Shown piece by piece: positions 5,222 through 39,780 of a stretch of DNA of 50,564 nt (positions are counted from its first letter, which is position 1; every line of letters starts with the position of its first letter). The notes below the pieces were generated by a model. The model was not told where the DNA came from, searched no databases, and saw only the letters and a list, made by a program, of their open reading frames with translations. A program made the position numbers and the translations under genes. The stretch covers positions 1 to 50,564 of the forward strand of contig SVTZ01000002.1 in NCBI GenBank assembly GCA_015063525.1, written 5' to 3'. Origin of the DNA: Oscillospiraceae bacterium (GTDB taxonomy: Bacteria > Bacillota > Clostridia > Oscillospirales > CAG-272).

Positions 5222-5872
5222 ATGAGTATCAATAAAACCTACGCCGTGTTCGGTCTTGGACGATACGGTCTTGCCGCTGCAAGGGAGCTTATAAATAGTG
5301 GTGTAGAGATTATCGCTGTTGATATGGACGAGAGCAAGGTAAACGCGCACACATCAGAGCTTCCTGTATGTAAGTGCGCTGACGTGACAGATCCCGAGGT
5401 TATTCGTCAGCTTGGCATCGGAGGTGTGGACGTGGTTATAATCTCAATGGCAAACAATCTTGAAGCAAGTGTTATGGCGGTTACTCTATGTAAAGAAGCC
5501 GGAGTCAAAACCGTCATTGCAAAGTGCGCAAACGAAATGCATAGAAAGATACTCTCTCGCGTTGGTGCTGACGTTGTGGTTTTTCCCGAGAATGAGTCGG
5601 GAATTCGCCTTGCGAAAAATCTGTTAAGCTCTGGATTTGCAGATATGATTACTCTTTCAAAGGAATTTTCTATGATCGAGCTTGACGTTAGGCCCGAATG
5701 GGTAGGTAAAAGCTTGCTTGAGCTTCATTTGCGTAAAAAATACGCCATCAACGTGGTCGCAATCAAACGCGGAGACAGGCTTACGGTCAATATAAATCCT
5801 GAGGAAAAGCTGACTGCCGATAGCTCACTTATTGTTATTGCCAATCCTCAAAAGCTTTCAAAACTTAGATAG
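5222..5872 (+). CDS. ktrA: TrkA/KtrA-family potassium uptake regulatory subunit (RCK N and C domains)
   Basis: N-terminal Rossmann motif VFGLGRYG, about 216 aa, immediately downstream of ktrB; an RBS (GAGG) precedes the ATG. Confidence 0.85.
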   Translation: MSINKTYAVFGLGRYGLAAARELINSGVEIIAVDMDESKVNAHTSELPVCKCADVTDPEVIRQLGIGGVDVVIISMANNLEASVMAVTLCKEAGVKTVIAKCANEMHRKILSRVGADVVVFPENESGIRLAKNLLSSGFADMITLSKEFSMIELDVRPEWVGKSLLELHLRKKYAINVVAIKRGDRLTVNINPEEKLTADSSLIVIANPQKLSKLR

Positions 5873-8481: not shown

Positions 8482-11283
8482 ATGAAACGCGATAACAAAA
8501 ATATTCTCAGTGTTATTCTGCTAATATCTCTTCTCGTATATGCTTTGCCGTTTACGGCGGTTGGCGCATCGGCATCTTCGGGATCGGGTATTATTGATGC
8601 TTCAGGCTGGCTAGAGTCGGCTTATGCGGAGTGGGCCCCTGTTAGCGGAGCTGACGGCTACAATGCTTACGTTGCGGGCAGCGACTCGTCCGTTTGGACA
8701 AAGATCGACAGTGCCCTTATCCGAGATTATTCGAGCTACTACCGCGTTGACGCTCTTGGTCTTAAGGCCGGTAGCTATCAGATCAAAATAATTCCCACAT
8801 CCGGCGGCGCAGAGCTTTCCGACAAGGCGCTTACCACCGAGACGCTTGTCGTTTCTCCTTACGATCGCTCTGGCTATGCACACTTTAATTACACCGACGG
8901 TGTCGGCGCGTATAACGACGACGGAACCTTGAAGGAAGGCGCAATAATCCTCTATGTTACCGAGGATAACAAGAATACTGTTTCGGTTACCTCCAAGGAC
9001 GGAACTACCGTTACCGGTATAGGAAATATTCTTAACTCGGTAGGCCAGGACGTTGGCGGAGGCAAGACCTCTAAGGGGGGCATCGCAAACTCTAATTCGG
9101 ATATTATCCGCAAGCTTGCTAATGACGGAACTCCTCTTGTGGTCCGTATTATCGGCAACGTTACCGCGCCCGACGGACTTACCGCCTTCAACTCTGTTAA
9201 TTACGGTGGATCTACCGGCGACAACGGCTATATGGCGAGAATGTCCGGCGGTAAGAATATCACTATCGAGGGCGTCGGCTTTGACGCGGCTATCAACGGC
9301 TGGGGTCTGCACTTTATCTGCCAGACCGCAGATTATAAGAACGGAATAGGCAAGAGCTTTGAGGTCCGTAATATTGCCTTCAGGAACGTTCCCGAGGATT
9401 GCGTTGGTATGGAGGGTCAGCAGGAGGGCTCTACCCTTACTGCACCCGTTGAGCGTTGTTGGATCCACCATTGCTCTTTCTACGCCCCCAAGATAGCAAA
9501 TCCTGCGGAGAGTGATAAAGATGGCGGTGACGGCGCTTGCGACTTCAAGCGAGGTCAGTATTTCACTAACGCATATTGCCTTTACGAGGGATATCACAAG
9601 ACAAATCTTATTGGCTCCGGAGATGATTCGCTGCAGTATCACATAACCTATCACCATAACTATTGGAGAAACTGCGAGTCTCGCGGACCTCTTGCACGTC
9701 AGGCGAATATTCATATGTATAACAACATCTTTGAGGGGCAAACCTCTTATTGTATGAGCATTCGCGCAAATGCGTATATATTCTCTGAATACAATATGTT
9801 CTTTAATTCAAAGAAGGTAAGTGAAAATAGAAATGGCGGTGTTTGCAAGAGCTATAACAACAGCTTCGTTTCATGCTCCGGGGCAGACGCCTCTGATATT
9901 ATCTACGTTGCTGACAGAGATGCTACCGTTTCATCGTCTTGCAAGTACGCAAACTTTGATACCAATTCCGCGCTCAGCTATATTCCCTCCGGAGATTACG
10001 TTCTCCAGGAGAGTATCTCCGAGATGAAGGCTGTCGTTATGGCCGAAGCCGGCACTCAAAAGGAGAATATTGTCACTCCCGATGAGGTAAACACCTCGGT
10101 TATTCCTGCAGCACTGTATCCCACCGCGGCAGTCGTTCTTGACTATTCCAAAAATCTTAACAAGAGCTATATCTCCTCTGCCGGCACATACGACAATATT
10201 GTTTTCAGCGTTTCTAAGTTCTTGGGTGATTACATAAGCCTTGGCGGTAATTCAACTCCTTGCAATATCGTGTTCTATGCAGATACCTCAGTTAATGTTA
10301 CGGTTACTCAGTATAGCGACAGCGCAAATGACGTGATTCTCTGTAGCGCTGTTGGCGAGTGCATTATGGTCGGCGGCGGAACAGCGGAAAATTTGCCATC
10401 GGGTTATTACTTTATCCAATCGAATAGCTATGACGTGGGTGAGGGCAAATATAAAGAGGCCAAGATCTCCGGCTTGACTATTACTGCCGTTGATCCTAAT
10501 GCTTCTACCAATCCCATTCCCACGCCTCCCTCTGTGACAGATCCCGATAACGGCGGTAATGCCGGTGGCGGTTCGACAATTTTGCCGGCAGGCGCATATA
10601 TGCACAGCTTTACCGAAAACGGTCTTACCGATCCTTCCGGATTCTTCAGCTTCTTCGATGCTAATCTTTCCGATTCGAAGGGAACGGTTGAATATAACGG
10701 TCTAACTCTTGATGTTTGCCTTAAGATCGAGAGCAAAACCAACATAAGCCTTACTGCTCCTGAAAGAGGAACTCTCCTTCTCGTCTTTGGCGGCTCGACC
10801 AATGCATCCGGCAAGCAGATTAAGATCGATGGCACGTCCACCGATATTGATTCCACCCAGATTCTTTCGGTAAGCGTTGAGGCGGGAGTCCACACTGTTA
10901 CAAAGGATGATTCTATCTTCCTCTACTATATCGCATACTTCTCCGAGTCTCAGGAAGAGCATACTCATGATTACTTCGAGGAGGAAATTGTTGCGGCAAC
11001 CTGCACTGAGGCAGGACTTCACACATTCGTTTGTGCGTGCGGTGACAGCTACACTGAGGAGATCGCTGCAAAGGGGCACGACTTCGAGGATGGTTTCTGC
11101 GTTGATTGCGGAATAAATGATCCCGACGGCGGCGAGAACGGCGAGGATGATCCCATATCTCCCGATGAAGGCGAAACAGAAATCGAAGCTCCCGACGAGC
11201 CCGAGGAAGAGCTTAACTTCTTTGAGCGAATTTGGAAGGCGATCGTAGATTTCTTCAAGAAACTTTTCGGAATAAAAGATTAA
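8482..11283 (+). CDS. Secreted multidomain pectate lyase (PL1-type parallel beta-helix) with C-terminal Cys/His module, acidic linker and amphipathic tail
   Basis: Signal peptide (..ALPFTAVGASA). PL1 signature blocks WIHHCSF, DGGDGACDFKRG, KTNLIGSGDD, ITYHHNYWRNCESRGPLARQANIHMYNN. GGAGG RBS. Confidence 0.75.
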   Translation: MKRDNKNILSVILLISLLVYALPFTAVGASASSGSGIIDASGWLESAYAEWAPVSGADGYNAYVAGSDSSVWTKIDSALIRDYSSYYRVDALGLKAGSYQIKIIPTSGGAELSDKALTTETLVVSPYDRSGYAHFNYTDGVGAYNDDGTLKEGAIILYVTEDNKNTVSVTSKDGTTVTGIGNILNSVGQDVGGGKTSKGGIANSNSDIIRKLANDGTPLVVRIIGNVTAPDGLTAFNSVNYGGSTGDNGYMARMSGGKNITIEGVGFDAAINGWGLHFICQTADYKNGIGKSFEVRNIAFRNVPEDCVGMEGQQEGSTLTAPVERCWIHHCSFYAPKIANPAESDKDGGDGACDFKRGQYFTNAYCLYEGYHKTNLIGSGDDSLQYHITYHHNYWRNCESRGPLARQANIHMYNNIFEGQTSYCMSIRANAYIFSEYNMFFNSKKVSENRNGGVCKSYNNSFVSCSGADASDIIYVADRDATVSSSCKYANFDTNSALSYIPSGDYVLQESISEMKAVVMAEAGTQKENIVTPDEVNTSVIPAALYPTAAVVLDYSKNLNKSYISSAGTYDNIVFSVSKFLGDYISLGGNSTPCNIVFYADTSVNVTVTQYSDSANDVILCSAVGECIMVGGGTAENLPSGYYFIQSNSYDVGEGKYKEAKISGLTITAVDPNASTNPIPTPPSVTDPDNGGNAGGGSTILPAGAYMHSFTENGLTDPSGFFSFFDANLSDSKGTVEYNGLTLDVCLKIESKTNISLTAPERGTLLLVFGGSTNASGKQIKIDGTSTDIDSTQILSVSVEAGVHTVTKDDSIFLYYIAYFSESQEEHTHDYFEEEIVAATCTEAGLHTFVCACGDSYTEEIAAKGHDFEDGFCVDCGINDPDGGENGEDDPISPDEGETEIEAPDEPEEELNFFERIWKAIVDFFKKLFGIKD

Positions 11284-11730: not shown

Positions 11731-11748
11731 GTTAAAAGGACAATTATT

Positions 11749-11775
11749 GTAGGGGCGAGCGATGCTCGCCCCTAC
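11749..11775. repeat. GC-rich palindromic (REP-like) element, intact copy; likely also serves as the trxA terminator
   Basis: gtaggggcgagc-gat-gctcgcccctac, a perfect 12-bp stem followed by gatttt. Two decayed copies of the same left arm occur at 41561-41582 and 41663-41685. Confidence 0.6.
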
Positions 11776-11886
11776 GATTTTGAAGCTCAAGAGAGTTATT
11801 TAGACAAATATTACCAAAGAATGAGTAAAATGTATCAAAAGTCCTCGAAAAATAAAGAAATATTTAGTAATTTTTAAATAAATGTA

Positions 11887-11915
11887 TTGACATTACTTTA
11901 TTTAAATGGTATAAT
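11887..11915 (+). promoter_or_regulatory. Perfect-consensus sigma-A promoter of the 12022-16466 operon
   Basis: TTGACA (11887-11892), exactly 17 nt, TATAAT (11910-11915), within an AT-rich region; about 100-nt leader. Confidence 0.65.
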
Positions 11916-12021: not shown

Positions 12022-13611
12022 ATGAATGCAAAAATTCGTATTTTAAGTCTCCTTGTAGCGGCAGTTATGATCTTCGGCTGCCTTCCCATGACCGCTTTTG
12101 CGACCGGTGATGAGGCAGAGGCGTTGCTTCAATCTGCAGAACACTTTGATAAAGATTGTGACTATGCCTGCGATAATTGCGGCAATGCTTTAGCTCTTAC
12201 TTTTGATGACTATGTAACCGATGGTGAAGCCGGAGAAGAGAGATATTCTTCTAATGGTTATGTTAGCTTTACAAACATTGCAGCAACGAGTGGTACTAGC
12301 TACTCGGATGCAAGAGACTATGTATTAAAGAGTACTGCTCGTCCCGAAGGTCATACCAAGGGTACATGGCTCTATCTTGGAGCAAATCCTGCTGATGCAA
12401 ATGATACTGTTCTTGTTTCAAACTCTGTAAGCGCCAGTAGTATGACTGATGATGCAATATCCGACGTTAATTTCACTCCTATTGTTCAAGATGAAAAAGG
12501 AGAATTGGTAGTTCTTGAGTTCGATTACCGTATTGACGGTGGTGCGGCGAGCAAAAATACATTCAAATTCGTGTATAATCATGAAGATGACACTGTTACC
12601 AGAGCTAACGGAACATATACATCTGCAGCAGATGGAGTATCGTATATCAGACTTGTTGCTGATGAAAAAGGTGTTTACAAGTTCACCTATAAAACTTGGG
12701 TAAGAATTAGACTTGTATGTAATGATGAAACACAAAATATTTACACTTATCTTTCGACAGATGGTGGAAATACATACGTACAGTGTAGCACAATCGGAGA
12801 CTACAAAACCAATAGCCCGATAACTTCTCTGGGTTTAACATACATTGGCTATGGTGTAAATTCCACTCAGTATTATGATAACATCGTATGTGTAAGAACA
12901 TCTCAGGAATATCTTGATCTTCCAGAGAGTGAATATGCTTGTGAAGAAATTTGCTCCTTCGCAGACGCTATTGCAAATGCTTCCGAAGGTGACGCTGTTT
13001 CTCTTCTTGCAGACGTGGATGCTTCCGGTTATGTTTCCGTAAAGGGTGGCGTTACCCTTGACCTTAACGGTCACAACCTTACTGCTGACGGTATTGCTCT
13101 TTACGGCGATGCTAACGTTATTGACAGCGCGGAGACTAAAGGCTCTCTTGTGGTTCCTGAGGGTAATTTCGCAGCGGCTGCTACAGCAACCGGTGCACTG
13201 CCTGTGTGGAATGGCTCGGCTTACGTTCTTGCTGATGTAACTGCTAACAATCAGCTTACGGACAATGGCGATGGTAGCTTTAAGGTGCTCTTCAAGCCCG
13301 GTTTTACCGGTATTGATGCTGCAACATTGTTCGCTGACGGCGCTGCTGATAACGGACTTCACTGGGCAGTTGAGATTGACTGCATTAAGGAAGGCGCGGT
13401 TGTACAGACCATCCGCTTTGATGTAGCTAATGAAGGTGAAGCGGGCTCCGGAGCTATTGGCAGTGTATACGGAACAGAGAATGCTATAAGCCTTACCGTA
13501 GGCGGCGCAACCAACTTCGAGAGCTATAGTATTAGAATGGTTATTGAGGCCGATTGCGGCATTACTTATTCCGAGGTAATGTGTGTTTATCCCGTTGTAT
13601 CGGCGGAGTAA
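12022..13611 (+). CDS. Secreted protein of unknown function with an N-terminal D-x-x-C-D-N-C-G Cys module; first gene of the RiPP-like operon
   Basis: Signal peptide (..CLPMTAFA|TGDE), then HFDKDCDYACDNCGNAL. No recognisable catalytic motif. AAAGGA RBS. Stops 14 nt before the small-peptide ORF, with no terminator between them. Confidence 0.55.
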   Translation: MNAKIRILSLLVAAVMIFGCLPMTAFATGDEAEALLQSAEHFDKDCDYACDNCGNALALTFDDYVTDGEAGEERYSSNGYVSFTNIAATSGTSYSDARDYVLKSTARPEGHTKGTWLYLGANPADANDTVLVSNSVSASSMTDDAISDVNFTPIVQDEKGELVVLEFDYRIDGGAASKNTFKFVYNHEDDTVTRANGTYTSAADGVSYIRLVADEKGVYKFTYKTWVRIRLVCNDETQNIYTYLSTDGGNTYVQCSTIGDYKTNSPITSLGLTYIGYGVNSTQYYDNIVCVRTSQEYLDLPESEYACEEICSFADAIANASEGDAVSLLADVDASGYVSVKGGVTLDLNGHNLTADGIALYGDANVIDSAETKGSLVVPEGNFAAAATATGALPVWNGSAYVLADVTANNQLTDNGDGSFKVLFKPGFTGIDAATLFADGAADNGLHWAVEIDCIKEGAVVQTIRFDVANEGEAGSGAIGSVYGTENAISLTVGGATNFESYSIRMVIEADCGITYSEVMCVYPVVSAE

Positions 13612-13625
13612 TTAAGGAGGAAAAA

Positions 13626-13754
13626 ATGAAGAAAGAATATATTAAGCCCGAAGCAGAGTATATCAGCTTCTACTCCGAGGAAGAAATTACCGCTGATGTT
13701 GACACAGGTCTCTCTGGCTCCTTTGGTGAGGAACCGGCTCCCGGAGACTGGTGA
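13626..13754 (+). CDS. 42-aa acidic peptide; candidate RiPP precursor (MKKEYIKPEAEYISFYSEEEITADVDTGLSGSFGEEPAPGDW)
   Basis: The ATG is preceded by AAGGAGG with a 6-nt spacer. Its TGA stop overlaps the next gene's ATG (TGATG). It has a Y-x-x-P motif near the N-terminus. The ORF-track entry 13554-13754 includes an unlikely N-terminal extension. Confidence 0.6.
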   Translation: MKKEYIKPEAEYISFYSEEEITADVDTGLSGSFGEEPAPGDW

Positions 13755-14470
13755 TGCTCTGCAAGATAGCAGACCTATTCGTTGAAATATCCGAGGCGGG
13801 GGGCATTGCCCCCCGCTGTGTGAATTATATGGCGGATTGCGCGGTCGATGTCGATATTATAATTGATAAAGAACTCTACAAGCCCGAAAGATGGAAGGGC
13901 CTCTCCTACGAGCAGGCTGTTTATATGGACTCGGGCTTGATATTTTATGCCGAGCTTCTTAAGTTCGGCGGTATGATGTTACATGCATCGGCGGTGGAGC
14001 TTGATGGCAAGGCATATCTTTTCTCCGGTCCCTCGGGTATGGGAAAATCCACACACGCCCGTCTTTGGCAGCAGAGCTTTCCCGGGGCGAGGGTGTTTAA
14101 TGATGATAAGCCCGCCCTTCGAAAGCTTGACGGTGTATGGTACGCCTACGGTACTCCTTGGTGCGGTAAGGACGGCATTAATATTAATTTAAAGGTACCG
14201 CTTGAAGGTATCTGCTTCTTAAGACGTGGCGAGAAGAACGAAATTCGCCGCCTTTCGCCATTAGAGGCCGCGTCTGCAATTATAAGCCAGACCTTAAGGC
14301 GGTTTTCAAGCACGAAGGGCCTTGCGCTTATGACCGACACGGTGGACAGCCTTACTCGTGATATTCCGGTGTTCGAGCTTCGCTGCCGACCTGATACCGA
14401 GGCGGCTATTATGAGCTACAAGGCGTTAAACAAAAGCAGCAGAGAGGTAAAAAATGAAGATAAAAAGTAA
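13754..14470 (+). CDS. HPr-kinase-C-terminal-domain-like (HprK-related) putative peptide serine kinase
   Basis: LHASAVELDGKAYLFSGPSGMGKSTHARLW...FNDDKP matches the HprK C-domain P-loop (G-x-S-G-x-GKS) and the downstream DD motif. ATG at 13754 (or GTG at 13751) is translationally coupled to the peptide ORF. Confidence 0.7.
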   Translation: MLCKIADLFVEISEAGGIAPRCVNYMADCAVDVDIIIDKELYKPERWKGLSYEQAVYMDSGLIFYAELLKFGGMMLHASAVELDGKAYLFSGPSGMGKSTHARLWQQSFPGARVFNDDKPALRKLDGVWYAYGTPWCGKDGININLKVPLEGICFLRRGEKNEIRRLSPLEAASAIISQTLRRFSSTKGLALMTDTVDSLTRDIPVFELRCRPDTEAAIMSYKALNKSSREVKNEDKK

Positions 14471-14720
14471 TTTCACTCTTAGAAATATAGCGGACACTTG
14501 GGTGGCGCTTCCCCTTGGCGAGGCGGCGGTTGACTTCACCGGTATGCTGACTCTTAACGAGTCGGGCGTTATGCTCTGGCGCTTACTTGAGGGCGGCTCA
14601 ACCCGTGAGGAGATGGCCGACGCGCTTCTTAAAGAGTACGAGGTTTCATACAATGAGGCGCTTGCTGACGTTGATGCGTTTATCGCAAGGCTGAATGACG
14701 CAGGCTGTATAGATGCCTAA
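14454..14720 (+). CDS. PqqD-family protein (RiPP recognition element / peptide chaperone)
   Basis: 88 aa. The pattern ..FTLRNIADTWVALPL...LTLNESGVMLWRLLEGGSTREEMADALLKEYEVSYNEALADVDAFIARL is the classic PqqD/RRE winged-helix pattern. Overlaps the preceding gene by 17 nt; GAGG RBS. Confidence 0.85.
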   Translation: MKIKSNFTLRNIADTWVALPLGEAAVDFTGMLTLNESGVMLWRLLEGGSTREEMADALLKEYEVSYNEALADVDAFIARLNDAGCIDA

Positions 14721-14728
14721 TCGTTCAG

Positions 14729-14753
14729 GAGTTCGGCAGGCGCCGAATTCTTT
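14729..14753 (+). other. Intra-operon hairpin followed by TTT (possible partial terminator or processing site)
   Basis: gagttcggc / gccgaattc 9-bp stem (one G-U pair), loop aggc, then ttt. Lies between the PqqD and peptidase genes. Confidence 0.35.
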
Positions 14754-14780
14754 GACTAAAAAATAGGAGAGGTAGCTTTT

Positions 14781-15248
14781 ATGAATAAGAGAGAATCGGT
14801 TTTTGTAAATATGTCCTCTCTTGCCTCTGTTATCGAGGAGAAGATCTCCGACGGCGGATCGGTCGAGCTTTCTATAAGAGGGGTCAGTATGCGTCCGCTT
14901 CTGCGAGAGGGAAAGGACAGCGTTGTTCTCTCGCCTCTTATGGGGAGGTTAAAAAAAGGCGATATTGCCCTTTTTCGAAGGAATAACGGCGCATATGTGC
15001 TTCATCGCGTCGCAAAGGTAGCTGACAGCAGATACAGCTTTGTCGGAGATAATCAGTACTTCCTTGAGCCCGTCATCGACGCTCAGATCATTGCCGTTGT
15101 CAGCGCGATCAGACGTGACGGCAGGTTGTTTGAATGCGGGAATTTTGCCTATCGCGTCTACGCATTCCTTTGGCAGACCTCGCGGCCGCTTCGTTTTCTT
15201 TTATTCCGCATTCTAAGAAAGCTAAAGAAAATTTTAAAAATCGCATAA
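14781..15248 (+). CDS. S24/S26-family serine peptidase, SipW/archaeal-type Ser-His variant, no N-terminal TM anchor
   Basis: GVSMRPLL (nucleophile Ser box), GDIALF and YVLHRV (His in place of the usual Lys of K-R-V) resemble ER/SipW-type signal peptidase boxes. No hydrophobic N-terminus. GGAGAGG RBS. Confidence 0.65.
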   Translation: MNKRESVFVNMSSLASVIEEKISDGGSVELSIRGVSMRPLLREGKDSVVLSPLMGRLKKGDIALFRRNNGAYVLHRVAKVADSRYSFVGDNQYFLEPVIDAQIIAVVSAIRRDGRLFECGNFAYRVYAFLWQTSRPLRFLLFRILRKLKKILKIA

Positions 15249-15281
15249 TTCCGATAAAAACAAAAAAGGAGAACGTCTGCC

Positions 15282-16466
15282 TTGGAAAAGAAGGAAATAT
15301 CACCCATATGCCTTGATATGATATATCTTGCCGCCTGCTCGTTTCACGGTAGGCTTCCCGAGCGAGCGCGTATTGAGGAAATGGACCTTCATGCTGTCTA
15401 TAAAATGGCAAAACGCCATTCTATGCAATCTATAGTTTACATTCTTGTATCAAAATGCGTGAAGGAATACGGCGGGGAGATTATCGACACAGAGCTTCTT
15501 TTGCGCTGGAAGCAGGATCATCACGCAACCCTCGCCCGTCTTGTCAGCTTTGATATTGAGCGCGAGCAGCTGCTTGATTTCCTTGATAAGAATGGCATTT
15601 GGTATCTCTGCCTTAAGGGTATTCTGCTTCAGCATTATTATCCCGCACTTGGTATGCGTCAGATGACCGATAACGATATTCTCGTTGACCGGGCAGGGTG
15701 TAGGAAAATTAGGGAGTATATGACCGAGCGCGGCTTTGAGGTCTATTCCTACGGCACGCACTGCCACGATACCTATATTAAGGGCGGCGTTGCGTTTGAG
15801 ATACACCGCACCTTAGCCGAGGACGGCGGGAAAACGAAGGATGCTTTCTCCTATTACGAGAACGTTAAGGACAAACTCCTGCCCGGTAAAAGAGCCGCCG
15901 AGCTTCAATTTTGCGACGAGGATTTTTATATTTATTATATCTTCCACGCCTACAAGCATTATTCCATCGCCGGTTGCGGAGTACGCACGCTGATGGATAT
16001 TTATGCCTTTCTGTCGAAAAAGGGCGATGGCCTTGATAAGGAATACCTGAACGCCGAGCTTTCCGCCTTGGGTCTTACCGAATACGAGAGGCGGTCGAGA
16101 GAGCTTGCGTTTGCGCTCTTTTCAGCCGATGCGACAGAGCAGTCAGCCGATATTCTTGCTTTAGATGATGAGCTTACCCAAATGCTTAACTACTATCTTC
16201 ACTCAGGTACCTTCGGCACGAAAAATCAGCAGATCGAAAACTCTGTTTCCGAAATATCGCGCGGTGGAGATGTGACCGTATTTACAAAGCTTCTATATCT
16301 TATAAGGCGTGTTTTTCCGGGTATGGATTACTACAGAAACTCCTACCCGAGGGCAAGCAAATTTCTCGTTACCATTCCCTTTTTATGGCTTATAAGGATT
16401 TTCCGCGGAATAGGGAAGGGAAAGAGCGTTGCAAAAGAGGTTGAACATTTAAAGGAAATAAAATAA
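15282..16466 (+). CDS. Nucleotidyltransferase-family protein (NTP_transf_5 / uncharacterised nucleotidyltransferase type)
   Basis: The core LCLKGILLQHYYPALGMRQMTDNDILVD...GFE.......HDTY...FEIH matches the PF14907-type pattern (KG..l...Yp....R...D.D.LV). TTG start at 15282 is 10 nt after AAGGAG; an alternative in-frame ATG lies at 15318. Confidence 0.7.
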   Translation: MEKKEISPICLDMIYLAACSFHGRLPERARIEEMDLHAVYKMAKRHSMQSIVYILVSKCVKEYGGEIIDTELLLRWKQDHHATLARLVSFDIEREQLLDFLDKNGIWYLCLKGILLQHYYPALGMRQMTDNDILVDRAGCRKIREYMTERGFEVYSYGTHCHDTYIKGGVAFEIHRTLAEDGGKTKDAFSYYENVKDKLLPGKRAAELQFCDEDFYIYYIFHAYKHYSIAGCGVRTLMDIYAFLSKKGDGLDKEYLNAELSALGLTEYERRSRELAFALFSADATEQSADILALDDELTQMLNYYLHSGTFGTKNQQIENSVSEISRGGDVTVFTKLLYLIRRVFPGMDYYRNSYPRASKFLVTIPFLWLIRIFRGIGKGKSVAKEVEHLKEIK

Positions 16467-16491
16467 GGGACGCGAGAAAATCGTGTCCCTT
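16465..16491 (+). terminator. Terminator hairpin ending the 12022-16466 operon
   Basis: aagggacgcga / tcgtgtccctt 11-bp stem (one G-U pair), loop gaaaa, overlapping the stop codon. Weak T-tract (ttatt). Confidence 0.55.
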
Positions 16492-16513
16492 ATTAACATA
16501 AAGTTAGAAAAGA

Positions 16514-16537
16514 GGGCAGGCTTTGAGAAGCCCGCCC
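16514..16537 (-). terminator. Terminator of the malQ-pullulanase transcript
   Basis: gggcaggctt / aagcccgccc stem (one mismatch), followed on the minus strand by tctcttttct. Confidence 0.55.
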
Positions 16538-16544
16538 TTAAATA

Positions 16545-18725
16545 TTATTTACCAATAACGTTGACGTTAACTAGAACGATCGCGCTGTAAGCAGGAATGG
16601 TCACATTCGTGCAAGCACCGTCAAGGAGATTGGTTGCTCCTGCCTGAGTTCCGTCGCAAACGAGATAGTACTCGCCGTCCGCGGTATATTCATACGTCTC
16701 CTCGGTGGGGTTAAGGACGATAACAGCCTTTCCGCCCATATGGTTGTCAATAACAACAGATGCTCTCGCGGTGTTTCCAATTGTAGAACCGGTTATAGCG
16801 GTATTGTTGTCTGTGAAGATGTCAAATGACTTTCTCATCTCAATAAGACCCTTGTAGTACTGAAGCATATTGTACTCATTAGTACCGTCGCTCAGCACGT
16901 TCCAATTGATGTTGTTAACCTCGTCGCTCGATTTATAGCTGTTTCGGTCGTAGCAGCCGTTGCCGTCGGGCTTGGTGCGGAGCATTTCCTCGCCTGCCTG
17001 AAAGAATACTATACCCTTGGAGATCATAAGGATGGTGGCACCAAGTCGGTTCATCGCCATTCTGTCCTCAACCGAGTTGGTTTCGTTGGAGAGAATAAGC
17101 TTATCCCAAAGGGTGTTGTTATCGTGAGCAGACATATAGTTAACTACCATAGCATCCTTTACGGTCCAGCTTGCGCCCGTGCCTGCGCCTCCTCTGATTC
17201 CGAAGAGAACGGAAGGGAATGCGCCTGAGCCGATTCCGCTGATGTAGCCCTTTGATGTATCGTTGAATACGCTGCCCTTAAGACCGTCACGTATCGCGTC
17301 GTTAAATACTGCTATGCCGCCGATAGCACTCTCGAAGGGAATGATATTCTTGATCTGGCTTTGGTTAGCCATTGCGCTTCCGTCTATCGTAGCGCCCATA
17401 GTCCAACCTTCGCCGTAGATTAGTGCCTGGGGATTTATGGTGTGAACTGCGGTCTCAACCTCCTGCATAGTATGGAGATCGTGGAGACCCATAAGGTCGA
17501 AGCGTAGTCCGTCAAGGTGGTATTCTTTCATCCAGTAGCCGGTGGAGTCAACCATAAACTTACCGTACATATATCTCTCGGATGCGGTGTCGTTGCCACA
17601 GCCGGATGCGGAGGATTTTGCCCCCGATGCGTTGTATCTGTAGTAATAGTAAGGAACGATCTTGTTTAAGCCGGAGTTAGCATCGTAGGTGTGGTTATAA
17701 ACAACGTCCATAACAACACCGATTCCAGCAGCGTGAAGAGCCTGAACCATTCTTTTGTATTCTCTGATTCTCACTTCACCGTTATATGGATCGGTGGAGT
17801 AGCTTCCATCGGGAACATTGTAGTTTTTGGGATCGTACCCCCAGTTGAACTGGCTGTCGGGATTTGCTTCATCTACGGTTGCGTAATCACAAACAGGAAG
17901 AAGTTGAACGTGGGTGATACCAAGCTTAACGAGATAATCAACGCCAACGCTCTCTCCGTGCTCGTTTATAAGACCTCTTTCGGTGAAGGAAAGGTACTTT
18001 CCCTTATACTTGGAGAGAGAGATCTTGTTGGAGAAGTCTCTTATGTGAACCTCCCAGATGATAGCATCGGAGTAGCTTTTGATTTCGGTGGAGAAGTCTG
18101 CGTCCTCTTCCCATCCCTCGGGATTGGTGAGAGAAAGGTCGACTACCATTCCGCGGTTTCCGTTAAGGCCTGCAGCCTTTGCATAAGGGTCAACAGCCTC
18201 CTGAGTGCCGACAGAGGTGGTAACGGTGTAGGTGTAATATGTGCCGTGTCCGCAGTTCGCGCTGTGGGACCAGACGCCCTTGCCGCCCTTTTTCATTTCA
18301 ACCTGCTCGTAAGCAGTGCCATTGTGGCCCGACTCGAAGAGATTAAGCACAACCTTGGATGCAGTGGGTGCCCATACCTTGAAGGTGGTCTTGTCGCCTT
18401 TAATTATAGCACCCAGATCGTCGCCGTTATAGTTGTAGGTGTTCTTGAATTCCGCAGTGTCAAAGATCTTCGTGGGGACGACGTTCTTCTCTCCATAGCC
18501 CTCGAGAAAAACACGGTAGGTCTTAGAGACATCAAGAGTTTCCTTGATCTCAATACTGCCGGTTATATCCTCTTTACCCATATTGGTTATGTTAAGAATT
18601 GTCAGTTCCTTTTCACCCTCGTATACCTTTATCTGGCTATACTTGGTAATCGCAGCCTTGGGAGTAATTGTGTATTCGATGTGATGGAAATCTATCATTC
18701 CCGCCAGGGAGAATTTCTTTGTCAT
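16545..18725 (-). CDS. pulA: Type I pullulanase (GH13, with N-terminal CBM41/CBM48-like modules)
   Basis: Conserved GH13/pullulanase regions: YNWGYDPKNY, GIGVVMDVVYNHT, LDGLRFDLMG, IYGEGW, YMSAHDN. Confidence 0.9.
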   Translation of the reverse strand: MTKKFSLAGMIDFHHIEYTITPKAAITKYSQIKVYEGEKELTILNITNMGKEDITGSIEIKETLDVSKTYRVFLEGYGEKNVVPTKIFDTAEFKNTYNYNGDDLGAIIKGDKTTFKVWAPTASKVVLNLFESGHNGTAYEQVEMKKGGKGVWSHSANCGHGTYYTYTVTTSVGTQEAVDPYAKAAGLNGNRGMVVDLSLTNPEGWEEDADFSTEIKSYSDAIIWEVHIRDFSNKISLSKYKGKYLSFTERGLINEHGESVGVDYLVKLGITHVQLLPVCDYATVDEANPDSQFNWGYDPKNYNVPDGSYSTDPYNGEVRIREYKRMVQALHAAGIGVVMDVVYNHTYDANSGLNKIVPYYYYRYNASGAKSSASGCGNDTASERYMYGKFMVDSTGYWMKEYHLDGLRFDLMGLHDLHTMQEVETAVHTINPQALIYGEGWTMGATIDGSAMANQSQIKNIIPFESAIGGIAVFNDAIRDGLKGSVFNDTSKGYISGIGSGAFPSVLFGIRGGAGTGASWTVKDAMVVNYMSAHDNNTLWDKLILSNETNSVEDRMAMNRLGATILMISKGIVFFQAGEEMLRTKPDGNGCYDRNSYKSSDEVNNINWNVLSDGTNEYNMLQYYKGLIEMRKSFDIFTDNNTAITGSTIGNTARASVVIDNHMGGKAVIVLNPTEETYEYTADGEYYLVCDGTQAGATNLLDGACTNVTIPAYSAIVLVNVNVIGK

Positions 18726-18781
18726 TGTTTGTTCGCCTTTGCTGTTGGGATGATTATTTTAAAGGATAAAACTTATAACAC

Positions 18782-20293
18782 TTATTTAACCGCGCGTCCG
18801 TTTCGCTCGGTCATTTCCTTGATCTTTCTCGTGAGAGAGGGGGTTCTGTATCTCTTGGACAGACGCCAGTTCCAGTTGCCCTCCGCAACTGCGGGAGTAT
18901 TGATTCTACCCTCATCGTTGGTAAGCTCAAGATAGTCCTGTATAGGAATTACCGCAAGGCCTGCACGGCTTGACATAGCAAGTTCAATCAGGTCGTAGGT
19001 GCGGCTCTGCCCGGGGATGGAGGGACACTCCTTCCTGAAGCGTCGCTTGGCTTCGCCTGAGAGGTTTTTCGACCAGGTTTTGGTGCAGTCGGAATCGTGA
19101 GAACCGGAGTAAACTACACAATTGGAGTGAGGATACATTCTGGGAAGATACTCCGAGTCGTCATCAAAGAAAGCAAACTGAAGTATCTTCATTCCGGGAA
19201 AACCGCAGTCGTCAAGAAGCTCGCGCACGTCGGAGGTGATAAAGCCAAGGTCTTCAGCGATGATCCTCGCCTTGGGGAAGTTTTTCGCTATCGTCCTGAA
19301 CAGGGAAATGCCCGGAGCAGGATCCCACTTGCCGTTTCTTGCGGTTGTTTCGCCGTAAGGAATATTATAGTATCCAGCAAAGCCTCTGAAATGATCTATG
19401 CGGAGAATGTCGTATAGCTTAAAGCTCTCTTGCACTCTCCTTTGCCACCAGGAGAAGCCGTCGGTCTCCATAAATGCCCAGTCGTAAATGGGGTTACCCC
19501 AAAGCTGACCGTCGGGAGAGAAGCCGTCGGGAGGACAGCCGGCAACAACTGTGGGATTGAAATTCTCGTCAAGCAGGAACTGCTCGGGAGCTTGCCATAC
19601 ATCCATACTGTCGTGGGCAACGTAGATAGGCATATCTCCGATTACTACTATACCCTTGGAATGGGCATATGAAAGGAGAGCCTGCCACTGATTGCTGAAT
19701 TCGTACTGTATCCAGATCCAGAAGCCGCACTCGGCTTCAAAATCGCCTCTCTTGGCTCTCGCCTGCTTTACGTCCTTGTGCTCGTCTGCCCAGGAGGTCC
19801 ATACTTCGTAGCTATAATGAACCTTCAGCGCCATAAAGAGCGAGTAGTCGTTAAGCCAATGTGAGTTCTTTCTGACGTAAGCTTTATATTTAGGGGACGT
19901 ATCACTCTTTTTGTCAATAAATCTTTCGTATGCCTTTCGAAGCACTACGTATCTTGTGTTAAATAGCCAACCATAATCGACCCTTAAGGTGTCGTGTATG
20001 TTTTCTTTAAGCTCATCCTTTGTAAGAAGCCCTTCCTTGGCAAGAATTTCAAGGTCGATAAAGTAGGGATTGCCTGCGATCGACGCGGGTGATTGATATG
20101 GACTGTCACCGTAGGAAGTAGGGTTGAGAGGTAAAACCTGCCAACACTTCGTCCTTGTATCAAATAGAAAATCCACGAAATCGTATGCGCTTTTACCGAA
20201 GGAGCCGATTCCGTATGGAGAGGGCAGGGAACTTATAGGCATTAAAATTCCGCTTTTGTGTCGGAAGCTGAAATTAGTTTGTAGGTTATTCAT
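18782..20293 (-). CDS. malQ: 4-alpha-glucanotransferase (amylomaltase, GH77)
   Basis: GH77 motifs: SPYGIGSFG, QVLPLNPT..DSPYQS, GDMPIYV, LRIDHFRGF, IIAEDLG, SGSHD. Confidence 0.9.
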   Translation of the reverse strand: MNNLQTNFSFRHKSGILMPISSLPSPYGIGSFGKSAYDFVDFLFDTRTKCWQVLPLNPTSYGDSPYQSPASIAGNPYFIDLEILAKEGLLTKDELKENIHDTLRVDYGWLFNTRYVVLRKAYERFIDKKSDTSPKYKAYVRKNSHWLNDYSLFMALKVHYSYEVWTSWADEHKDVKQARAKRGDFEAECGFWIWIQYEFSNQWQALLSYAHSKGIVVIGDMPIYVAHDSMDVWQAPEQFLLDENFNPTVVAGCPPDGFSPDGQLWGNPIYDWAFMETDGFSWWQRRVQESFKLYDILRIDHFRGFAGYYNIPYGETTARNGKWDPAPGISLFRTIAKNFPKARIIAEDLGFITSDVRELLDDCGFPGMKILQFAFFDDDSEYLPRMYPHSNCVVYSGSHDSDCTKTWSKNLSGEAKRRFRKECPSIPGQSRTYDLIELAMSSRAGLAVIPIQDYLELTNDEGRINTPAVAEGNWNWRLSKRYRTPSLTRKIKEMTERNGRAVK

Positions 20294-23350: not shown

Positions 23351-25120
23351 TTAAGCCGCATATTCCCGTTTTGGAATATAGTAGTAAATTACCACGGTCG
23401 CGGTCACTTCTTTCAGTGAGTCGTGAACGACTGTAACGTAATCCGTGGGGTTGCAATCGTATTTGCTGGAAATAGTACCGCCACCGGTTATATTACCAAA
23501 CATCTCACCCCAGCCGCCGTAGTAGTTAAGGTATTCCTGAAAATCGTTATAGTGATTGTAGGTATAGAATACGTATCTTTCGTCAAGGTCGATTATCTTA
23601 TTTCCGTTAAGGTCGCTGTGCGAATAGACTATTCGGGCCGCGCCTCTTGTGATGCTGTAGCCGTTGTTGTAAAGGGCGGCAGTATATTTTGGATCGCAGT
23701 CGGTTCCCGTAGTACCAATATCCATCTCGTAGTAGATGAAATCGCCGCCGCAACCGGAAATTCGGGGAAGAACGGGCTCGTAAGGATATCTCGAGGTGTC
23801 GCCGCTGAATTTTGTATGGTTAACTCTTAGATATTCGCCCCAAGGACTTTCGGTCGGCTCTGTGTTTTTGGAATAGGATTGGTTTGCGGGAGGCTCGCCA
23901 AAGGCGAATACGTATGCCGCAACCTCTTCAAGAATAACGTAAGCACCACCCTTGTATATCTCGGAGGTAATCTCGCCGTAGCAGTCCACAACGTAGTAGG
24001 TGTTTTTGTCCTCGGAGAATATATAGATGTTGTTTCTAATAAATTTACCGTCTGATTTTGGCTGATATGCCGATATCGTAGGCCGCTGATCCTGCTCCGC
24101 GATGCTTCCTGACATAAGACCGTGCTGAGTTCTGTAATAGGCGTCCATATAGCTTATCGCAGGAGTGTAATTGGCGTAGAACTCTTTAACGTCAACGTCT
24201 GCGTAAGGGTCGCTAGTCACGGGATCGTCTGTGCCCGGATTGGTAACGTTCTCACCAGAGCCGCTGCTATTTTCACCTTCTTCACCGTTATCCGAGTCGC
24301 CACCATCTCCCTGATCGGGCTTTGTGGGGGTATCAATGCCGGGTGTATAGTAATTAATTATCTTTCCGCGCTCGATTTCAAGCGTGCCTCTGTAATTTCT
24401 CAGAGTTCCGCTGATAATAAGCATATCACCTACTGAAAGATCGCTTGAAGAAAGACTCGTGCCGTTAATGTATGTGCTTCTGTAAACGTAAATAGAGCCG
24501 GTTTCGTCAAAAATTGTCATTTCGCCGTTTCTAAGACTCTCAATTTCGGAAATTGTGGCTACGATATAGTATTTTTCAGAAGACGCAGAGCTTGTGTATC
24601 TCTCGGCAAGTTCCAGCGCCTTTGCAACCGTGATGCATGGATATTCCAAGCCGAAAACGTACTCGTCCTCTTCATCAGCATCGCTGTTTCCACCATTTTC
24701 GGTGTCGTTTTCACTGTTTTCAGTGTCATTCTCACCGTCTCCGCCGATTTCGGTGTCGGTATCCGCTGTAACCTTTACTGTAACTCTGTCAACCTTGTCA
24801 CCAAGAGCTGCCTTAATTACGGCTGTACCTTCAGCCAGAGCTGTAACAACGCCGTCTTCAACCGAAGCACAGCTACTGCTACTTGTCCAGACAACCTCGC
24901 CCTCCGCCTCGTCGGAGCGTATAATCGTAAGACTTACAGTCTCACCGACCATAAGATTGATTGTGCTCTCTTCGTCTATGTAAAATGACTTATCGTCAGG
25001 CGGGTTAGCTTCACCGCCTCCGCCGAGGTTAATATTTGGGAGAATATCGCAGGATACTGTGTTGAAAAGCAGGACGAATACTATTATTATTGCTGCTGTA
25101 ATTTTACTGAAACGCTTCAT
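23351..25120 (-). CDS. Surface lipoprotein: Big_2 Ig-like domain, OB-fold-like domain, and a C-terminal barnase/RNase Sa (N1/T1-superfamily) ribonuclease domain
   Basis: Lipobox NTVSC. Big_2-like VGETVSLTI...VTALAEGTAVIKA. C-terminal blocks YEPVLP, FIYYEMDI, TRGAARIVY and YVFYTYNHYNDFQEY align with RNase Sa blocks (ESVLP, YYHEYTV, TRGTRRII, YYTGDHYATF). Confidence 0.7.
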   Translation of the reverse strand: MKRFSKITAAIIIVFVLLFNTVSCDILPNINLGGGGEANPPDDKSFYIDEESTINLMVGETVSLTIIRSDEAEGEVVWTSSSSCASVEDGVVTALAEGTAVIKAALGDKVDRVTVKVTADTDTEIGGDGENDTENSENDTENGGNSDADEEDEYVFGLEYPCITVAKALELAERYTSSASSEKYYIVATISEIESLRNGEMTIFDETGSIYVYRSTYINGTSLSSSDLSVGDMLIISGTLRNYRGTLEIERGKIINYYTPGIDTPTKPDQGDGGDSDNGEEGENSSGSGENVTNPGTDDPVTSDPYADVDVKEFYANYTPAISYMDAYYRTQHGLMSGSIAEQDQRPTISAYQPKSDGKFIRNNIYIFSEDKNTYYVVDCYGEITSEIYKGGAYVILEEVAAYVFAFGEPPANQSYSKNTEPTESPWGEYLRVNHTKFSGDTSRYPYEPVLPRISGCGGDFIYYEMDIGTTGTDCDPKYTAALYNNGYSITRGAARIVYSHSDLNGNKIIDLDERYVFYTYNHYNDFQEYLNYYGGWGEMFGNITGGGTISSKYDCNPTDYVTVVHDSLKEVTATVVIYYYIPKREYAA

Positions 25121-39300: not shown

Positions 39301-39780
39301 ACATATGTGCATACCGTAGGATCAGGATGGGGCGCAAAGCAATACGTAAATATGGGTATAATTTGTATTATTGTGAATCCGGAAGAGTTTGATGATAACC
39401 TTGCAGATCCTTACAAAGATGCTTATAAATTTGACAAAGATGGAGACGGCAAAATTGATTCAGGATATAATTACTCCACATATATTAGGCATAATCTTGT
39501 AATAAAGGATGAACGTGATGTAGCCGGTTCTGCCATATGTGCTAAGAAAACACTGGGTCATCTGTATATGCCTACATTTAACTACAAAAAGGCTACATTA
39601 GAGACTGGTCTGAATTATATATTTGAAGGTATGTTACGATTAATAGGTCTCAATCTCAATGAGTTGGACGGTCAGATTAACCTTATAACATATGTAAATA
39701 ATCAGGAATCCTATACCATAGGTACTACAACAGGCTATCCTCTTGATTACAGCGGTTACTATACAAATTACGGCAATTAA
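36331..39780 (+). CDS. 1149-aa protein with a prepilin-type (class III) N-terminal cleavage/methylation signal and a C-terminal right-handed beta-helix-like region
   Basis: N-terminus MKKQNRKA|FTIVELVIVIAVIGILAAVLIP fits the type IV pilin/pseudopilin signal (F at +1, E at +5). Repetitive beta-helix-like segment around ..GNGYKITAQN..VSGGTVDNVYINGPI..VSGIVAENGSKINNSYIKGF..SITNTTLHAGNYANLQL. AGGAG RBS. Confidence 0.7.
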   Translation: MKKQNRKAFTIVELVIVIAVIGILAAVLIPTFAGIIGNANKSADQSVAATLTTQLRLHSIDGEITDEAGLVKVLAKVDPDGTKLVPKALGDGYHFWFEMETQTIIVDKIENIPAPMARIAGTANTSFRDIKGSGYYLIDAGVLSAEFSTADIKYDVFSFIDELATASDYTRLFTTLSAVADAHNYKDIADLVLAKLATTTIRTEAGAFFTANANREYISASATFLGATFHKYADNRTTLVESDEVPVPSGEFGIPSNIEYVSEGALDYAEDSNVVILMPSVNSIVNSFSPAATNATIKVGDATYMVGDLNGENTDKLYTTAGEYVADLVVKLPFAEFEIGYNNNGVVNHTGSGEEKIIYVAYRNGTLRLNAVNAENAAQSSNKVQEWSVLPGDYGTVTIDPKTGIVNLETATFVNNVCEITVQAKALNVNDEVRIETAKVVVVKPLTATVTIITTFTDKTIDFAADSHAISLPFNGELTSYQTTVVATYTKDSTSITNPTAPNDVVAILGIKPQLSIDENTYFRCSSQDNKLIYQTTEDSDGNLIGGDQTFVLKVDNYLEASITATMADMSAAIFKTDFHHERTEDRQYYIGSGNVIKLSDLYNIDTSKFTADKDAIINIYDRVGGTGQLYPMYLANNDPDDDVDYNDKLNLTVKVNVDADGKYTLEGDNLVEKDSFNVTANDWENVVLQFDYEDVNTSTDGKTLEAYIEIIPSDGSVSTIVKFSVVKDALNVTDISGLVAKDKDGNIITHTTDIVIQKDISSVTNADKIVLGDKTLYGNGYKITAQNYKSVATGTRDDYFIKVSGGTVDNVYINGPIYPELDYENANHGYDVSGIVAENGSKINNSYIKGFRQPVAADGGYGGSVSITNTTLHAGNYANLQLVTGTLTLEDVTTIQDQNGTENTFGVQDGAWKKTTRKVLGMGIVIEMTALRDDGTAAKKNNPITLKGYLDQFNWVEKGQKATMPTVMGFDMGAVFPYLYETSLFSSMETYVHTVGSGWGAKQYVNMGIICIIVNPEEFDDNLADPYKDAYKFDKDGDGKIDSGYNYSTYIRHNLVIKDERDVAGSAICAKKTLGHLYMPTFNYKKATLETGLNYIFEGMLRLIGLNLNELDGQINLITYVNNQESYTIGTTTGYPLDYSGYYTNYGN

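Follow-up and report, generated by a model that had tools for sequence, protein, structure and literature searches.

The locus considered here raises the question of what a gene cassette may produce when it carries recognition and tailoring genes known from lasso peptide clusters and is devoid of a lasso cyclase. The cassette occupies positions 13626-16466 of a 50,564-nt stretch of an Oscillospiraceae bacterium genome (contig SVTZ01000002.1, positions 1 to 50,564; this whole stretch is called the window below). It comprises genes for a small acidic peptide, an HprK-like kinase, a PqqD-type recognition element (RRE) of peptides that are made ribosomally and modified after translation (RiPPs), an S26 peptidase, and a nucleotidyltransferase-fold protein of the NTP_transf_5 family. 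The original prediction, made from the DNA alone, suggested an orphan pathway for a linear, leader-dependent peptide with HprK-like phosphorylation and an S24/S26-type leader protease, and regarded it as a RiPP class not described biochemically. We assign the locus, with a probability of about 0.75, to operons for linear polyphosphorylated peptides (LPPs), in a Clostridia clade. The proposed chemistry has indeed been shown for the homologous lpp cluster, and the class is not new, since LPPs were defined by Popov et al. (Nat Commun 2026; PMC13381572), published in May 2026. Thus, the pathway class is already known, and the locus is a variant of it that differs in the RRE and peptidase clade, in the spacing of the leader, in the lack of an exporter, and in the coupling to a secreted protein. 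The last feature, the coupling of the precursor gene to the gene of a large secreted protein with a conserved C-terminal domain (CTD), is the new observation.

The lpp cluster of Paenibacillus alginolyticus DSM5050 has the gene order A-K-B-S-D-N and no lasso cyclase (PMC13381572). Expression in B. subtilis demonstrated LppK-dependent addition of 1-4 phosphates on core Ser3. The leader is cut by the peptidase LppS after T-1; this reaction needs the RRE protein LppB and is abolished by the substitutions S29A, H68A or D93A. LppS acts in the cytoplasm on the RRE-presented leader, not on Sec signal peptides. The precursor motif is YxxPxVLxHQxIxFETxxS, or Px9Fx[T/A], with the phosphorylated Ser at +3. 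No final product or function has been reported for LPPs, the Bacilli clusters are situated in capsule loci, and the published study was almost entirely on Bacilli (PMC13381572). Sequences for the comparison were taken from Supplementary Data 1 of that paper.

Gene content and homology to the lpp enzymes

The ORF listing of the window contains the five predicted plus-strand open reading frames (ORFs) at 13626-16466, and the same genes, including the 42-aa ORF, were predicted by an independent gene caller on a public Logan contig. Together with the preceding gene, discussed below, they are as follows.

12022..13611, + strand: gene 1 of the operon, secreted CTD protein, 529 aa; N-terminal signal peptide, C-terminal CTD at about nt 13204-13608
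13626..13754, + strand: precursor peptide (LppA-like), 42 aa, MKKEYIKPEAEYISFYSEEEITADVDTGLSGSFGEEPAPGDW; strong ribosome-binding site, AAGGAGG-N6-ATG
13754..14470, + strand: HprK-like P-loop kinase (LppK-like), 238 aa; Pfam ScmC PF27840, HprK/PEPCK fold
14454..14720, + strand: discrete RRE of the PqqD family (LppB-like role), 88 aa; PF05402, E=1.4e-17
14781..15248, + strand: S26 peptidase of the archaeal/SipW type (LppS-like), 155 aa; homologous to LppS
15282..16466, + strand: NTP_transf_5 nucleotidyltransferase-fold protein (LppN/PsmN-like), 394 aa; PF14907, E=2e-42, TTG start

The gene set and order (precursor, HprK-like kinase, RRE, S26 peptidase, NTP_transf_5 protein) are those of the LPP biosynthetic gene clusters, minus the exporter gene D.

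The peptidase can be aligned directly with LppS (30.5 % identity over 118 residues, E=4e-15 in BLASTP), and a hidden Markov model (HMM) of the window peptidase family scores LppS at E=3.5e-22. Its S36 and H75 align with the catalytic S29 and H68 of LppS and are invariant in 49 sequences; the spacing between Ser and His is 39 residues in both proteins, and D90 of the GDN box is present. Like LppS, the protein has no N-terminal transmembrane segment, and its C-terminal tail is hydrophobic and basic. In the NCBIfam scan it matched sigpep_I_arch (E=1e-7) and also SipW and the nickel superoxide dismutase (NiSOD) protease model sod_Ni_protease, all below threshold.

The RRE, detected by PF05402 in the Pfam scan of the window, also scores on the lasso PqqD model NF033530 (E=7e-10). 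The match to the crystallized LppB (PDB 9X8Z) is weak. Residues N35, Y62, D72, and F76 of the window protein correspond to N33, Y60, D70, and F74 of LppB, which hold the leader Tyr and Pro in that structure. From these residues, the protein would bind a leader of the Tyr-type YxxP variety.

For the kinase and the NTP_transf_5 protein, homology to LPP proteins was established through shared family models rather than by direct alignment. Two models, TIGR04249 (ScmC; E=2.8e-10) and TIGR04352 (HprK-related kinase A; E=7.9e-5), were matched by the kinase, both below threshold; Popov et al. pooled the same two as 'HprK kinase'. Precomputed Pfam data place the protein in PF27840 (ScmC). A profile of the family compared with PDB sequences yielded generic P-loop/ABC matches only, and a fold search was used instead. 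The AlphaFold2 model, based on an alignment of 52 homologs, has a predicted local distance difference test score (pLDDT) of 91.5, and its best PDB matches in Foldseek are ATP-dependent PEPCK and HprK/P (E about 3e-6, probability 1.0), with template-modeling (TM) scores of about 0.4-0.55. All 52 homologs have the Walker A motif GPSGMGKST unchanged, and other invariant polar residues are retained in the family as well. Judging by the model, the product of 13754-14470 appears to be an HprK-like kinase adjacent to the RRE, as in the LPP clusters. The last protein of the operon contains a D-x-D motif (TDNDILV) that was found by a regular expression in 28 of 32 family members, and belongs to the same Pfam family as the LppN group of Popov et al.

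Four Pfam families had been named in the original prediction. Two of them, PqqD and NTP_transf_5, are solid. The third, Peptidase_S24, is matched below threshold (E=0.0034), and here the sigpep_I_arch match and the homology to LppS lend support. The fourth, Hpr_kinase_C (PF07475), gave no match to the kinase in the Pfam scan, but the predicted fold is that of HprK/PEPCK.

The precursor peptide family

For comparison, 80 loci were fetched from among the 498 stretches that matched in species-representative genomes of GTDB, and metagenome contigs were added. Together they provided 66 distinct precursor peptides of 30-63 aa. The expectation that a small acidic ORF with a YxxP motif would be conserved holds for all of them, as the leader Tyr and the Pro at +3 relative to it are each found in 66/66 peptides. 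Further positions counted from Tyr are A/V/I/L at +5 (64/66), Glu at +6 (57 peptides), I/V/L at +8 (64/66), F/L at +10 (62), E/D at +14 (56/66), and A/M/T at +17. In the window precursor the leader motif is Y5-x-x-P8-x-A10. This RRE-binding part fits the LPP and lasso motif [Y/W]xxPx[L/V/I/F/A]; the first position is Tyr, never Trp, in all 66 peptides, as would suit an RRE pocket of the kind that contains Asp and is specific for Tyr.

The cores are rich in Gly, Asp, Glu, and Ser, have a median net charge of -5, and contain at least one Ser in every case. Common to them is the pattern hydrophobic-[D/S/G]-G-[S/T/E/D]-x-G, with the last Gly found in 54 of 64. A further column, close to the C-terminus, exists in 38 peptides and holds an aromatic residue in 37 of these, usually Trp. 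The C-terminus itself is W, D or E after the aromatic residue, and not Ser. In the window precursor, the leader would correspond to residues 1-22 and the acidic, Gly/Asp-rich core to residues 23-42, both approximately. Cleavage may occur after T22, by analogy with [T/A] at position -1, and Ser32 within the conserved G-S-x-G motif is our best guess for the phospho-acceptor, as suggested by the alignment. The alternation of S/T and E/D in the candidate column would be compatible with a phosphorylation site.

One family peptide, LKKDYLKPDAEYLVFYTQESITIDGDIEGPGADIGEGENSQGWE (L093, 16397-16525), has CTG at the start position behind the ribosome-binding site GAAAGGAG. Some peptides 'missing' from the census may be start-codon artifacts.

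Search for lasso genes

An obvious alternative is a split lasso pathway, in which the genes for the cyclase and the B2 protease lie at another place in the genome. Several features recall lasso systems: the YxxPx[A/V/I/L] leader is of the lasso type, the RRE scores on the lasso PqqD model, a kinase together with an NTP_transf_5 protein is the typical tailoring set of paeninodin and pseudomycoidin, and about one third of the LPP-type peptidases in Bacilli adjoin lasso genes (PMC13381572).

However, comparison of all large ORFs of the 50-kb window with Pfam revealed no Asn synthase, transglutaminase, radical SAM protein, YcaO protein, or MsbA-type exporter, in agreement with the absences listed in the original prediction. 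A motif-based screen of 1.33 Mb around more than 80 related cassettes identified no PP-loop Asn-synthetase-like ORF of the SGGxDS type and of cyclase size, so the proposed test for a cyclase linked in relatives also came out in favor of a cyclase-less pathway. The B2 protease was searched for in the window, where no protein matched Transglut_core, and related loci were not screened for it. Other SGGxDS-like ORFs were considered as hidden cyclases. Those scanned were a glycyl-radical enzyme, a protein of the LytR-CpsA-Psr (LCP) family, and one protein without a Pfam match; the remaining ones have an N-terminal PP-loop and are too short for a cyclase, as judged by size and motif position only. 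Besides, with an S26 peptidase dedicated to the leader there is no need for a B2 protease, and the homologous LPP system gives linear products. A split lasso pathway is hence very improbable, and a linear product of the LPP type is preferred.

Census of related loci

The arrangement of the cassette recurs far beyond chance. About 2,800 kinase clusters were found in metagenomes, and uncultured Clostridia of gut and rumen widely carry the same LPP toolkit, with a distinct leader grammar. The gene order of the family is CTD protein, peptide, K, B, (X), S, and then D and/or N, where the letters follow the lpp genes and X is an additional protein.

Downstream genes were counted in those 63 distinct loci whose downstream sequence extends over 5 kb or more. 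The RRE is present in 59 of them, protein X in 53, and the S26 peptidase in 44. The NTP_transf_5 gene alone occurs in 15/63 loci, the exporter gene alone in 12/63, both in 3/63, and neither in 33/63. In total, an MsbA-like ABC exporter was observed in 15/63 loci (12 alone and 3 with N), in or beside the place occupied by the NTP_transf_5 gene in the window. The lack of a dedicated exporter, which had been seen as characteristic, is thus no trait of the class. In Bacilli LPP clusters, exporter and NTP_transf_5 genes usually occur together, whereas in the clade of the window this is seldom the case.

Protein X, which is not encoded in the window, is placed between the RRE and the peptidase, for example at 11051-11713 in L002, 10974-11486 in L008, and 14629-15078 in L098. 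At its N-terminus it carries a transmembrane segment or a lipoprotein signal, which is followed by a low-complexity linker and by a C-terminal domain that measures about 60 aa and is conserved (consensus TYEEYxAMSxEEQQxxFxSFxSxxDFFxWYNAAKxEYE...IEIGGDGxIDLGDII); the protein has no Pfam match. In 14-16 loci the cassette is flanked by genes for Wzz, BY-kinase, CpsB/CapC, LCP proteins, or sortase, echoing the capsule-locus context of the Bacilli LPP clusters. Examples of capsule-type genes are found at 4049-4867 in L014, 14529-17737 in L016, 11203-11931 in L083, 14328-15278 in L070, and 1353-6500 in L093. In L093 the NTP_transf_5 gene is located upstream, beside LCP and cps genes, and not after the peptidase gene.

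Relationship to the published LPP clade

Several observations weigh against the assignment to LPPs as published. Two of them concern phylogenetic placement in the sequence similarity network (SSN) of the LPP study. The window peptidase matches best the SSN clusters 4 and 9 (36 % identity, E from 1e-26 to 1e-32), compared to about 30 % for LPP cluster 1, and the window RRE matches best the 'RRE others' of the same clusters (36-45 %, E from 1e-18 to 1e-28), compared to E=3.5e-5 for LppB. Three others concern the precursor. The spacing in the window family is Px6[F/L] in place of the published Px9Fx[T/A]. The position Tyr+18, equivalent to Ser3 of LppA, is Ala in the window peptide and D18/S8/N7 in the family. 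In the candidate phosphorylation column, only 28 of 56 peptides have Ser or Thr, and 16 have Glu or Asp. As for the proteins, E96 of the peptidase is aligned to the catalytic D93 of LppS, being Glu in 44/49 sequences; the kinase scores 40 bits on TIGR04249, far under the NCBIfam cut-off of 125; the MsbA-like exporter LppD was found neither in the operon nor in the 50-kb window; and LppN had no detectable activity even in the LPP study (PMC13381572).

SSN clusters 4 and 9 consist of Clostridia entries labeled 'RRE others' that were left unanalyzed in PMC13381572. Because both the peptidase and the RRE are closer to these clusters by pairwise scores, the locus is best placed in a sister clade, not in the published LPP clade. 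By this comparison the peptidase would fall outside SSN cluster 1 and the RRE outside the monophyletic 'LPP RRE' clade, and the locus apparently belongs to a separate Clostridia clade that has not been studied so far.

The low kinase score could also have a more radical explanation: the P-loop protein might be no Ser kinase at all, and serve in carboxylate activation, as a scaffold, or as an ATPase, with chemistry unlike that of LPPs. The missing Hpr_kinase_C match would agree with this, as would a fold that fits PEPCK as well as HprK/P, the frequent Glu or Asp in the acceptor column, and the extreme acidity of the cores. On the other hand, kinases of the LppK type with proven activity fall under the same model families, Walker A and other polar residues are invariant, and no core lacks Ser. 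We consider a non-kinase role unlikely, and LPP-type phosphorylation remains the preferred reading.

Operon structure

The regulatory elements around the cassette are listed below.

11746..11778, + strand: GC-rich terminator-like hairpin; arms of 15 nt that are 93 % complementary, loop of 3 nt, then TTTT; 3' of a thioredoxin gene
11887..11915, + strand: putative sigma-70-type promoter, TTGACA-17-TATAAT; 12/12 consensus match, extended -10 TG
16462-16475 / 16481-16494, + strand: hairpin over the last stop codon; 14-nt arms, 93 % complementary
16513-16538: second hairpin, serving the convergent gene

The five ORFs, their junctions, the promoter sequence, and the end hairpin agree with the original prediction, as seen from the ORF list, reading of the sequence, and a hairpin search. 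The kinase ATG uses the A of the TGA stop codon of the peptide gene, forming a TGATG overlap, with an alternative in-frame GTG start at 13751. The RRE and kinase genes overlap by 17 nt, and the gaps are 60 nt between the RRE and peptidase genes and 33 nt between the peptidase and NTP_transf_5 genes. However, the promoter at 11887 is not directly before the five-gene cassette, as had been supposed. The gene at 12022-13611 comes first and ends 14 nt 5' of the peptide gene. Since the promoter precedes this gene and the hairpin at 11746-11778 likely ends the preceding transcription unit, the operon consists of six genes. The cassette is not an orphan; it forms the tail of this operon and is linked with the secreted protein encoded upstream.

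Coupling of the precursor gene to a secreted protein

The 529-aa protein encoded by the first gene has no Pfam or NCBIfam match. Secreted proteins in the same position range from 377 to over 7,000 aa, and 54 of 61 distinct ones share a homologous CTD of about 135 aa at the extreme C-terminus. A CTD protein is directly upstream of the peptide gene in 52/65 loci with enough upstream sequence, and the gap between the two genes has a median of 21 nt (6-50 nt in 38/41 cases). The AlphaFold2 model of the domain, computed with library proteins, is an all-beta sandwich (pLDDT 82); in a fold search it had only generic beta-sandwich matches (best E=5e-3) and no informative match in the PDB.

An exhaustive HMMER search with the window CTD alone among 1.84 billion representatives produced 102 matches, and full-length single-stretch matches lie at the extreme C-terminus of proteins; word-indexed searches, started from one sequence and later from a profile of 45, retrieved almost nothing. 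Five of the matches were picked without reference to the kinase for a reverse test, and in 5/5 cases the CTD protein gene is followed by a family peptide within 14-18 nt. In L093 the peptide is the CTG-start one and is followed by the full cassette, as is the peptide of L098. In L096 (284-11628) the CTD protein and peptide are followed by protein X only, with no K, B or S downstream. In L097 (481-6219) no pathway gene follows the pair, and the next gene, for enolase, is on the other strand. In L092 (638-5535) the CTD protein is followed by the peptide MKKDYIKPDAEYVEFYSLEETTTEIDSGVSGSWGEEDIPW and by no kinase in the approximately 440 nt available before the sequence ends; an 82-aa gene fragment after this peptide was considered as a kinase and rejected on scanning.

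Other loci show the same association in different configurations. Two CTD-protein/peptide pairs precede one K-B-S set in each of L063 (1-10004) and L064 (2015-4905). In L077 (3-3660) the CTD protein gene is 6.4 kb upstream of the kinase gene and is directly followed by a divergent peptide, MNEYTAPEIIPMDLFEEDPRTVVGVTSSPLPSMPEDW, that was missed by the HMM. Given that all five CTD proteins of the reverse test have the peptide, at least two of them without enzyme genes nearby, the link of the precursor gene with the CTD protein is closer than that with the enzymes of its own pathway.

The size of the CTD protein before the same cassette varies enormously, from 529 aa in the window to 7,230 aa in L004 (1-9686), the closest long relative, which is syntenic with the window (amylase/GH77/DHH context, 65 % kinase identity). 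This difference, together with the absence of protein X and an ABC exporter, might indicate that the window operon is a decaying or silent remnant in which the exporter and X were lost and only a 529-aa protein is left of a 'giant' one. But all six ORFs are intact, the promoter is of consensus type, the ribosome-binding sites are good, and the catalytic residues and Walker A are conserved. Moreover, the exporter-less architecture with N only is found in 15/63 loci, and L004 and L098, whose amylase/GH77 context is the same, have it too. Decay is thus improbable, and an intact operon of the LPP type is the preferred interpretation.

In L033 the tail of the CTD protein (5570-5704), ...GEGLGGWETETENPEGWE, resembles the core of its own peptide, ...FGLDIGGWETDVSLPEGWM, whose gene is just upstream of position 6328. 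The two score 65 in local alignment, compared to a maximum of 25 for non-cognate pairs, and the tail is possibly a fusion remnant. As a general rule, resemblance between CTD tail and peptide core was rejected, as it is seen in L033 only.

The gene linkage admits an interpretation that places the function in the pair and is compatible with LPP-type chemistry. The peptide would be a dedicated partner of the upstream CTD protein (an anionic ligand, anchor, adaptor, or assembly factor), with K, B, S, and N as a shared service. It is favored by the frequency and tightness of the coupling, by the double, remote, and reverse-test pairs described above, by the pairs with no downstream enzymes, and by the surface-related context, that is, the membrane-anchored X with its conserved extracellular domain and the capsule, LCP, and sortase genes. 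Against it, the support is genomic linkage and the CTD fold is a generic one, 13/65 cassettes have no adjacent CTD protein, co-location could merely lend the peptide gene a strong promoter, and the window operon, having neither X nor an exporter, offers the peptide no evident route to the surface. We regard such a partnership as a real possibility, somewhat short of even odds.

A stronger version is doubtful. It holds that the LPP-type precursor in Oscillospirales-like gut Clostridia is no free-standing natural product but an obligate genetic partner of secreted CTD proteins of up to about 7,000 aa, each having a precursor gene of its own 6-50 nt downstream and in many cases remote from the enzymes, that one K/B/S set matures these precursors in trans, and that the resulting polyanionic phospho(glyco)peptide is a ligand, anchor, or adaptor at the surface, possibly with X and the LCP/capsule machinery. 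In any case, the coupling provides a functional lead for what LPPs are for. If the peptide is indeed a partner of the CTD protein, this would be the first biological function for LPPs and a new system of surface-protein display or assembly in Gram-positive bacteria.

Genomic neighborhood

On the minus strand, convergent to the operon, the window carries a glycogen/starch pair (16545-20293) encoding a CBM48 and alpha-amylase protein and a GH77 4-alpha-glucanotransferase; amylase/GH77 genes also flank the cassette in L004 and L098. In L004 a WapI-like immunity protein gene (12802-13239) is directly 3' of the NTP_transf_5 gene, and the window is without it. Upstream in the window, positions 8482-11283 encode a secreted pectate lyase of 933 aa that includes a CBM77 module and an acidic linker. 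In place of a recognizable anchor, the protein has an amphipathic tail, NFFERIWKAIVDFFKKLFGIKD, at its end. For the window ORFs at 23351-25120 (589 aa), 36331-39780 (1149 aa), and 41937-43208 (423 aa), the Pfam scan gave no match at E<=1e-5.

Proposed pathway

A four-step pathway can be suggested for the window operon. First, the PqqD-type RRE would hold the precursor via Y5-x-x-P8-x-A10, as implied by the conserved contact residues. Second, by homology, the HprK-like kinase would phosphorylate a core Ser, with Ser32 as the favored candidate, possibly repeatedly. Third, the membrane-less S26 peptidase would dock on the RRE-leader complex and remove a leader of about 22 residues, again by homology and with some uncertainty about the site. 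Fourth, the NTP_transf_5 protein may decorate the phosphate, by analogy with PsmN, without which no hexose is added to the phospho-Ser of pseudomycoidin. The mature anionic peptide would most likely act with the secreted CTD protein at the cell surface.

Comparison with known systems

The paeninodin and pseudomycoidin systems (PadeK, PsmK, PsmN) are similar to the locus in the HprK-like kinase acting on a linear precursor, the NTP_transf_5 protein, the PqqD-type B1 RRE, and the [Y/W]xxP leader. In contrast to them, the window lacks both a macrolactam cyclase and a B2 cysteine protease, the leader being assigned to an S26 serine peptidase. Its peptide lacks the terminal Ser, and the leader has Tyr where Trp is typical of paeninodins.

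SynChlorMet (ScmC/ScmD, TIGR04249/TIGR04248) and the systems of HprK-related kinases A/B (TIGR04352/TIGR04355) likewise have an HprK-related P-loop protein next to a PqqD-like one, and models of the TIGR04249/TIGR04352 and TIGR04248 types are the best NCBIfam matches for the window kinase and RRE, respectively. However, the scores are 40 bits for the kinase and 25 bits for the RRE, versus the NCBIfam cut-offs of 125 bits (TIGR04249) and 100 bits (TIGR04248), and the window contains no radical SAM/SPASM partners.

With Bacillus SipW, the archaeal-eukaryotic S26B peptidases, and the NiSOD protease, the window peptidase shares the Ser-His core, the SM-P and HR motifs, and the GDN box. It differs in lacking the N-terminal membrane anchor, and, by analogy with LppS, its substrate would be an RRE-presented leader.

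The closest known system is the LPP cluster. In addition to gene content and order, the locus shares with it a Tyr-type YxxPx[hydrophobic] leader, the absence of a cyclase, a conserved Glu at Tyr+14, an anchor-less peptidase with aligned catalytic Ser and His, and the frequent proximity of surface-polysaccharide genes. The differences are a leader three residues shorter from Pro to Phe, with no Ser at Tyr+18, and Glu as the third catalytic residue of the peptidase. The exporter is absent from the window, and in related Clostridia loci it mostly alternates with the NTP_transf_5 protein. Finally, most relatives of the window cassette have the extra membrane protein X, and the clade of the window couples the precursor gene with that of a large secreted CTD protein.

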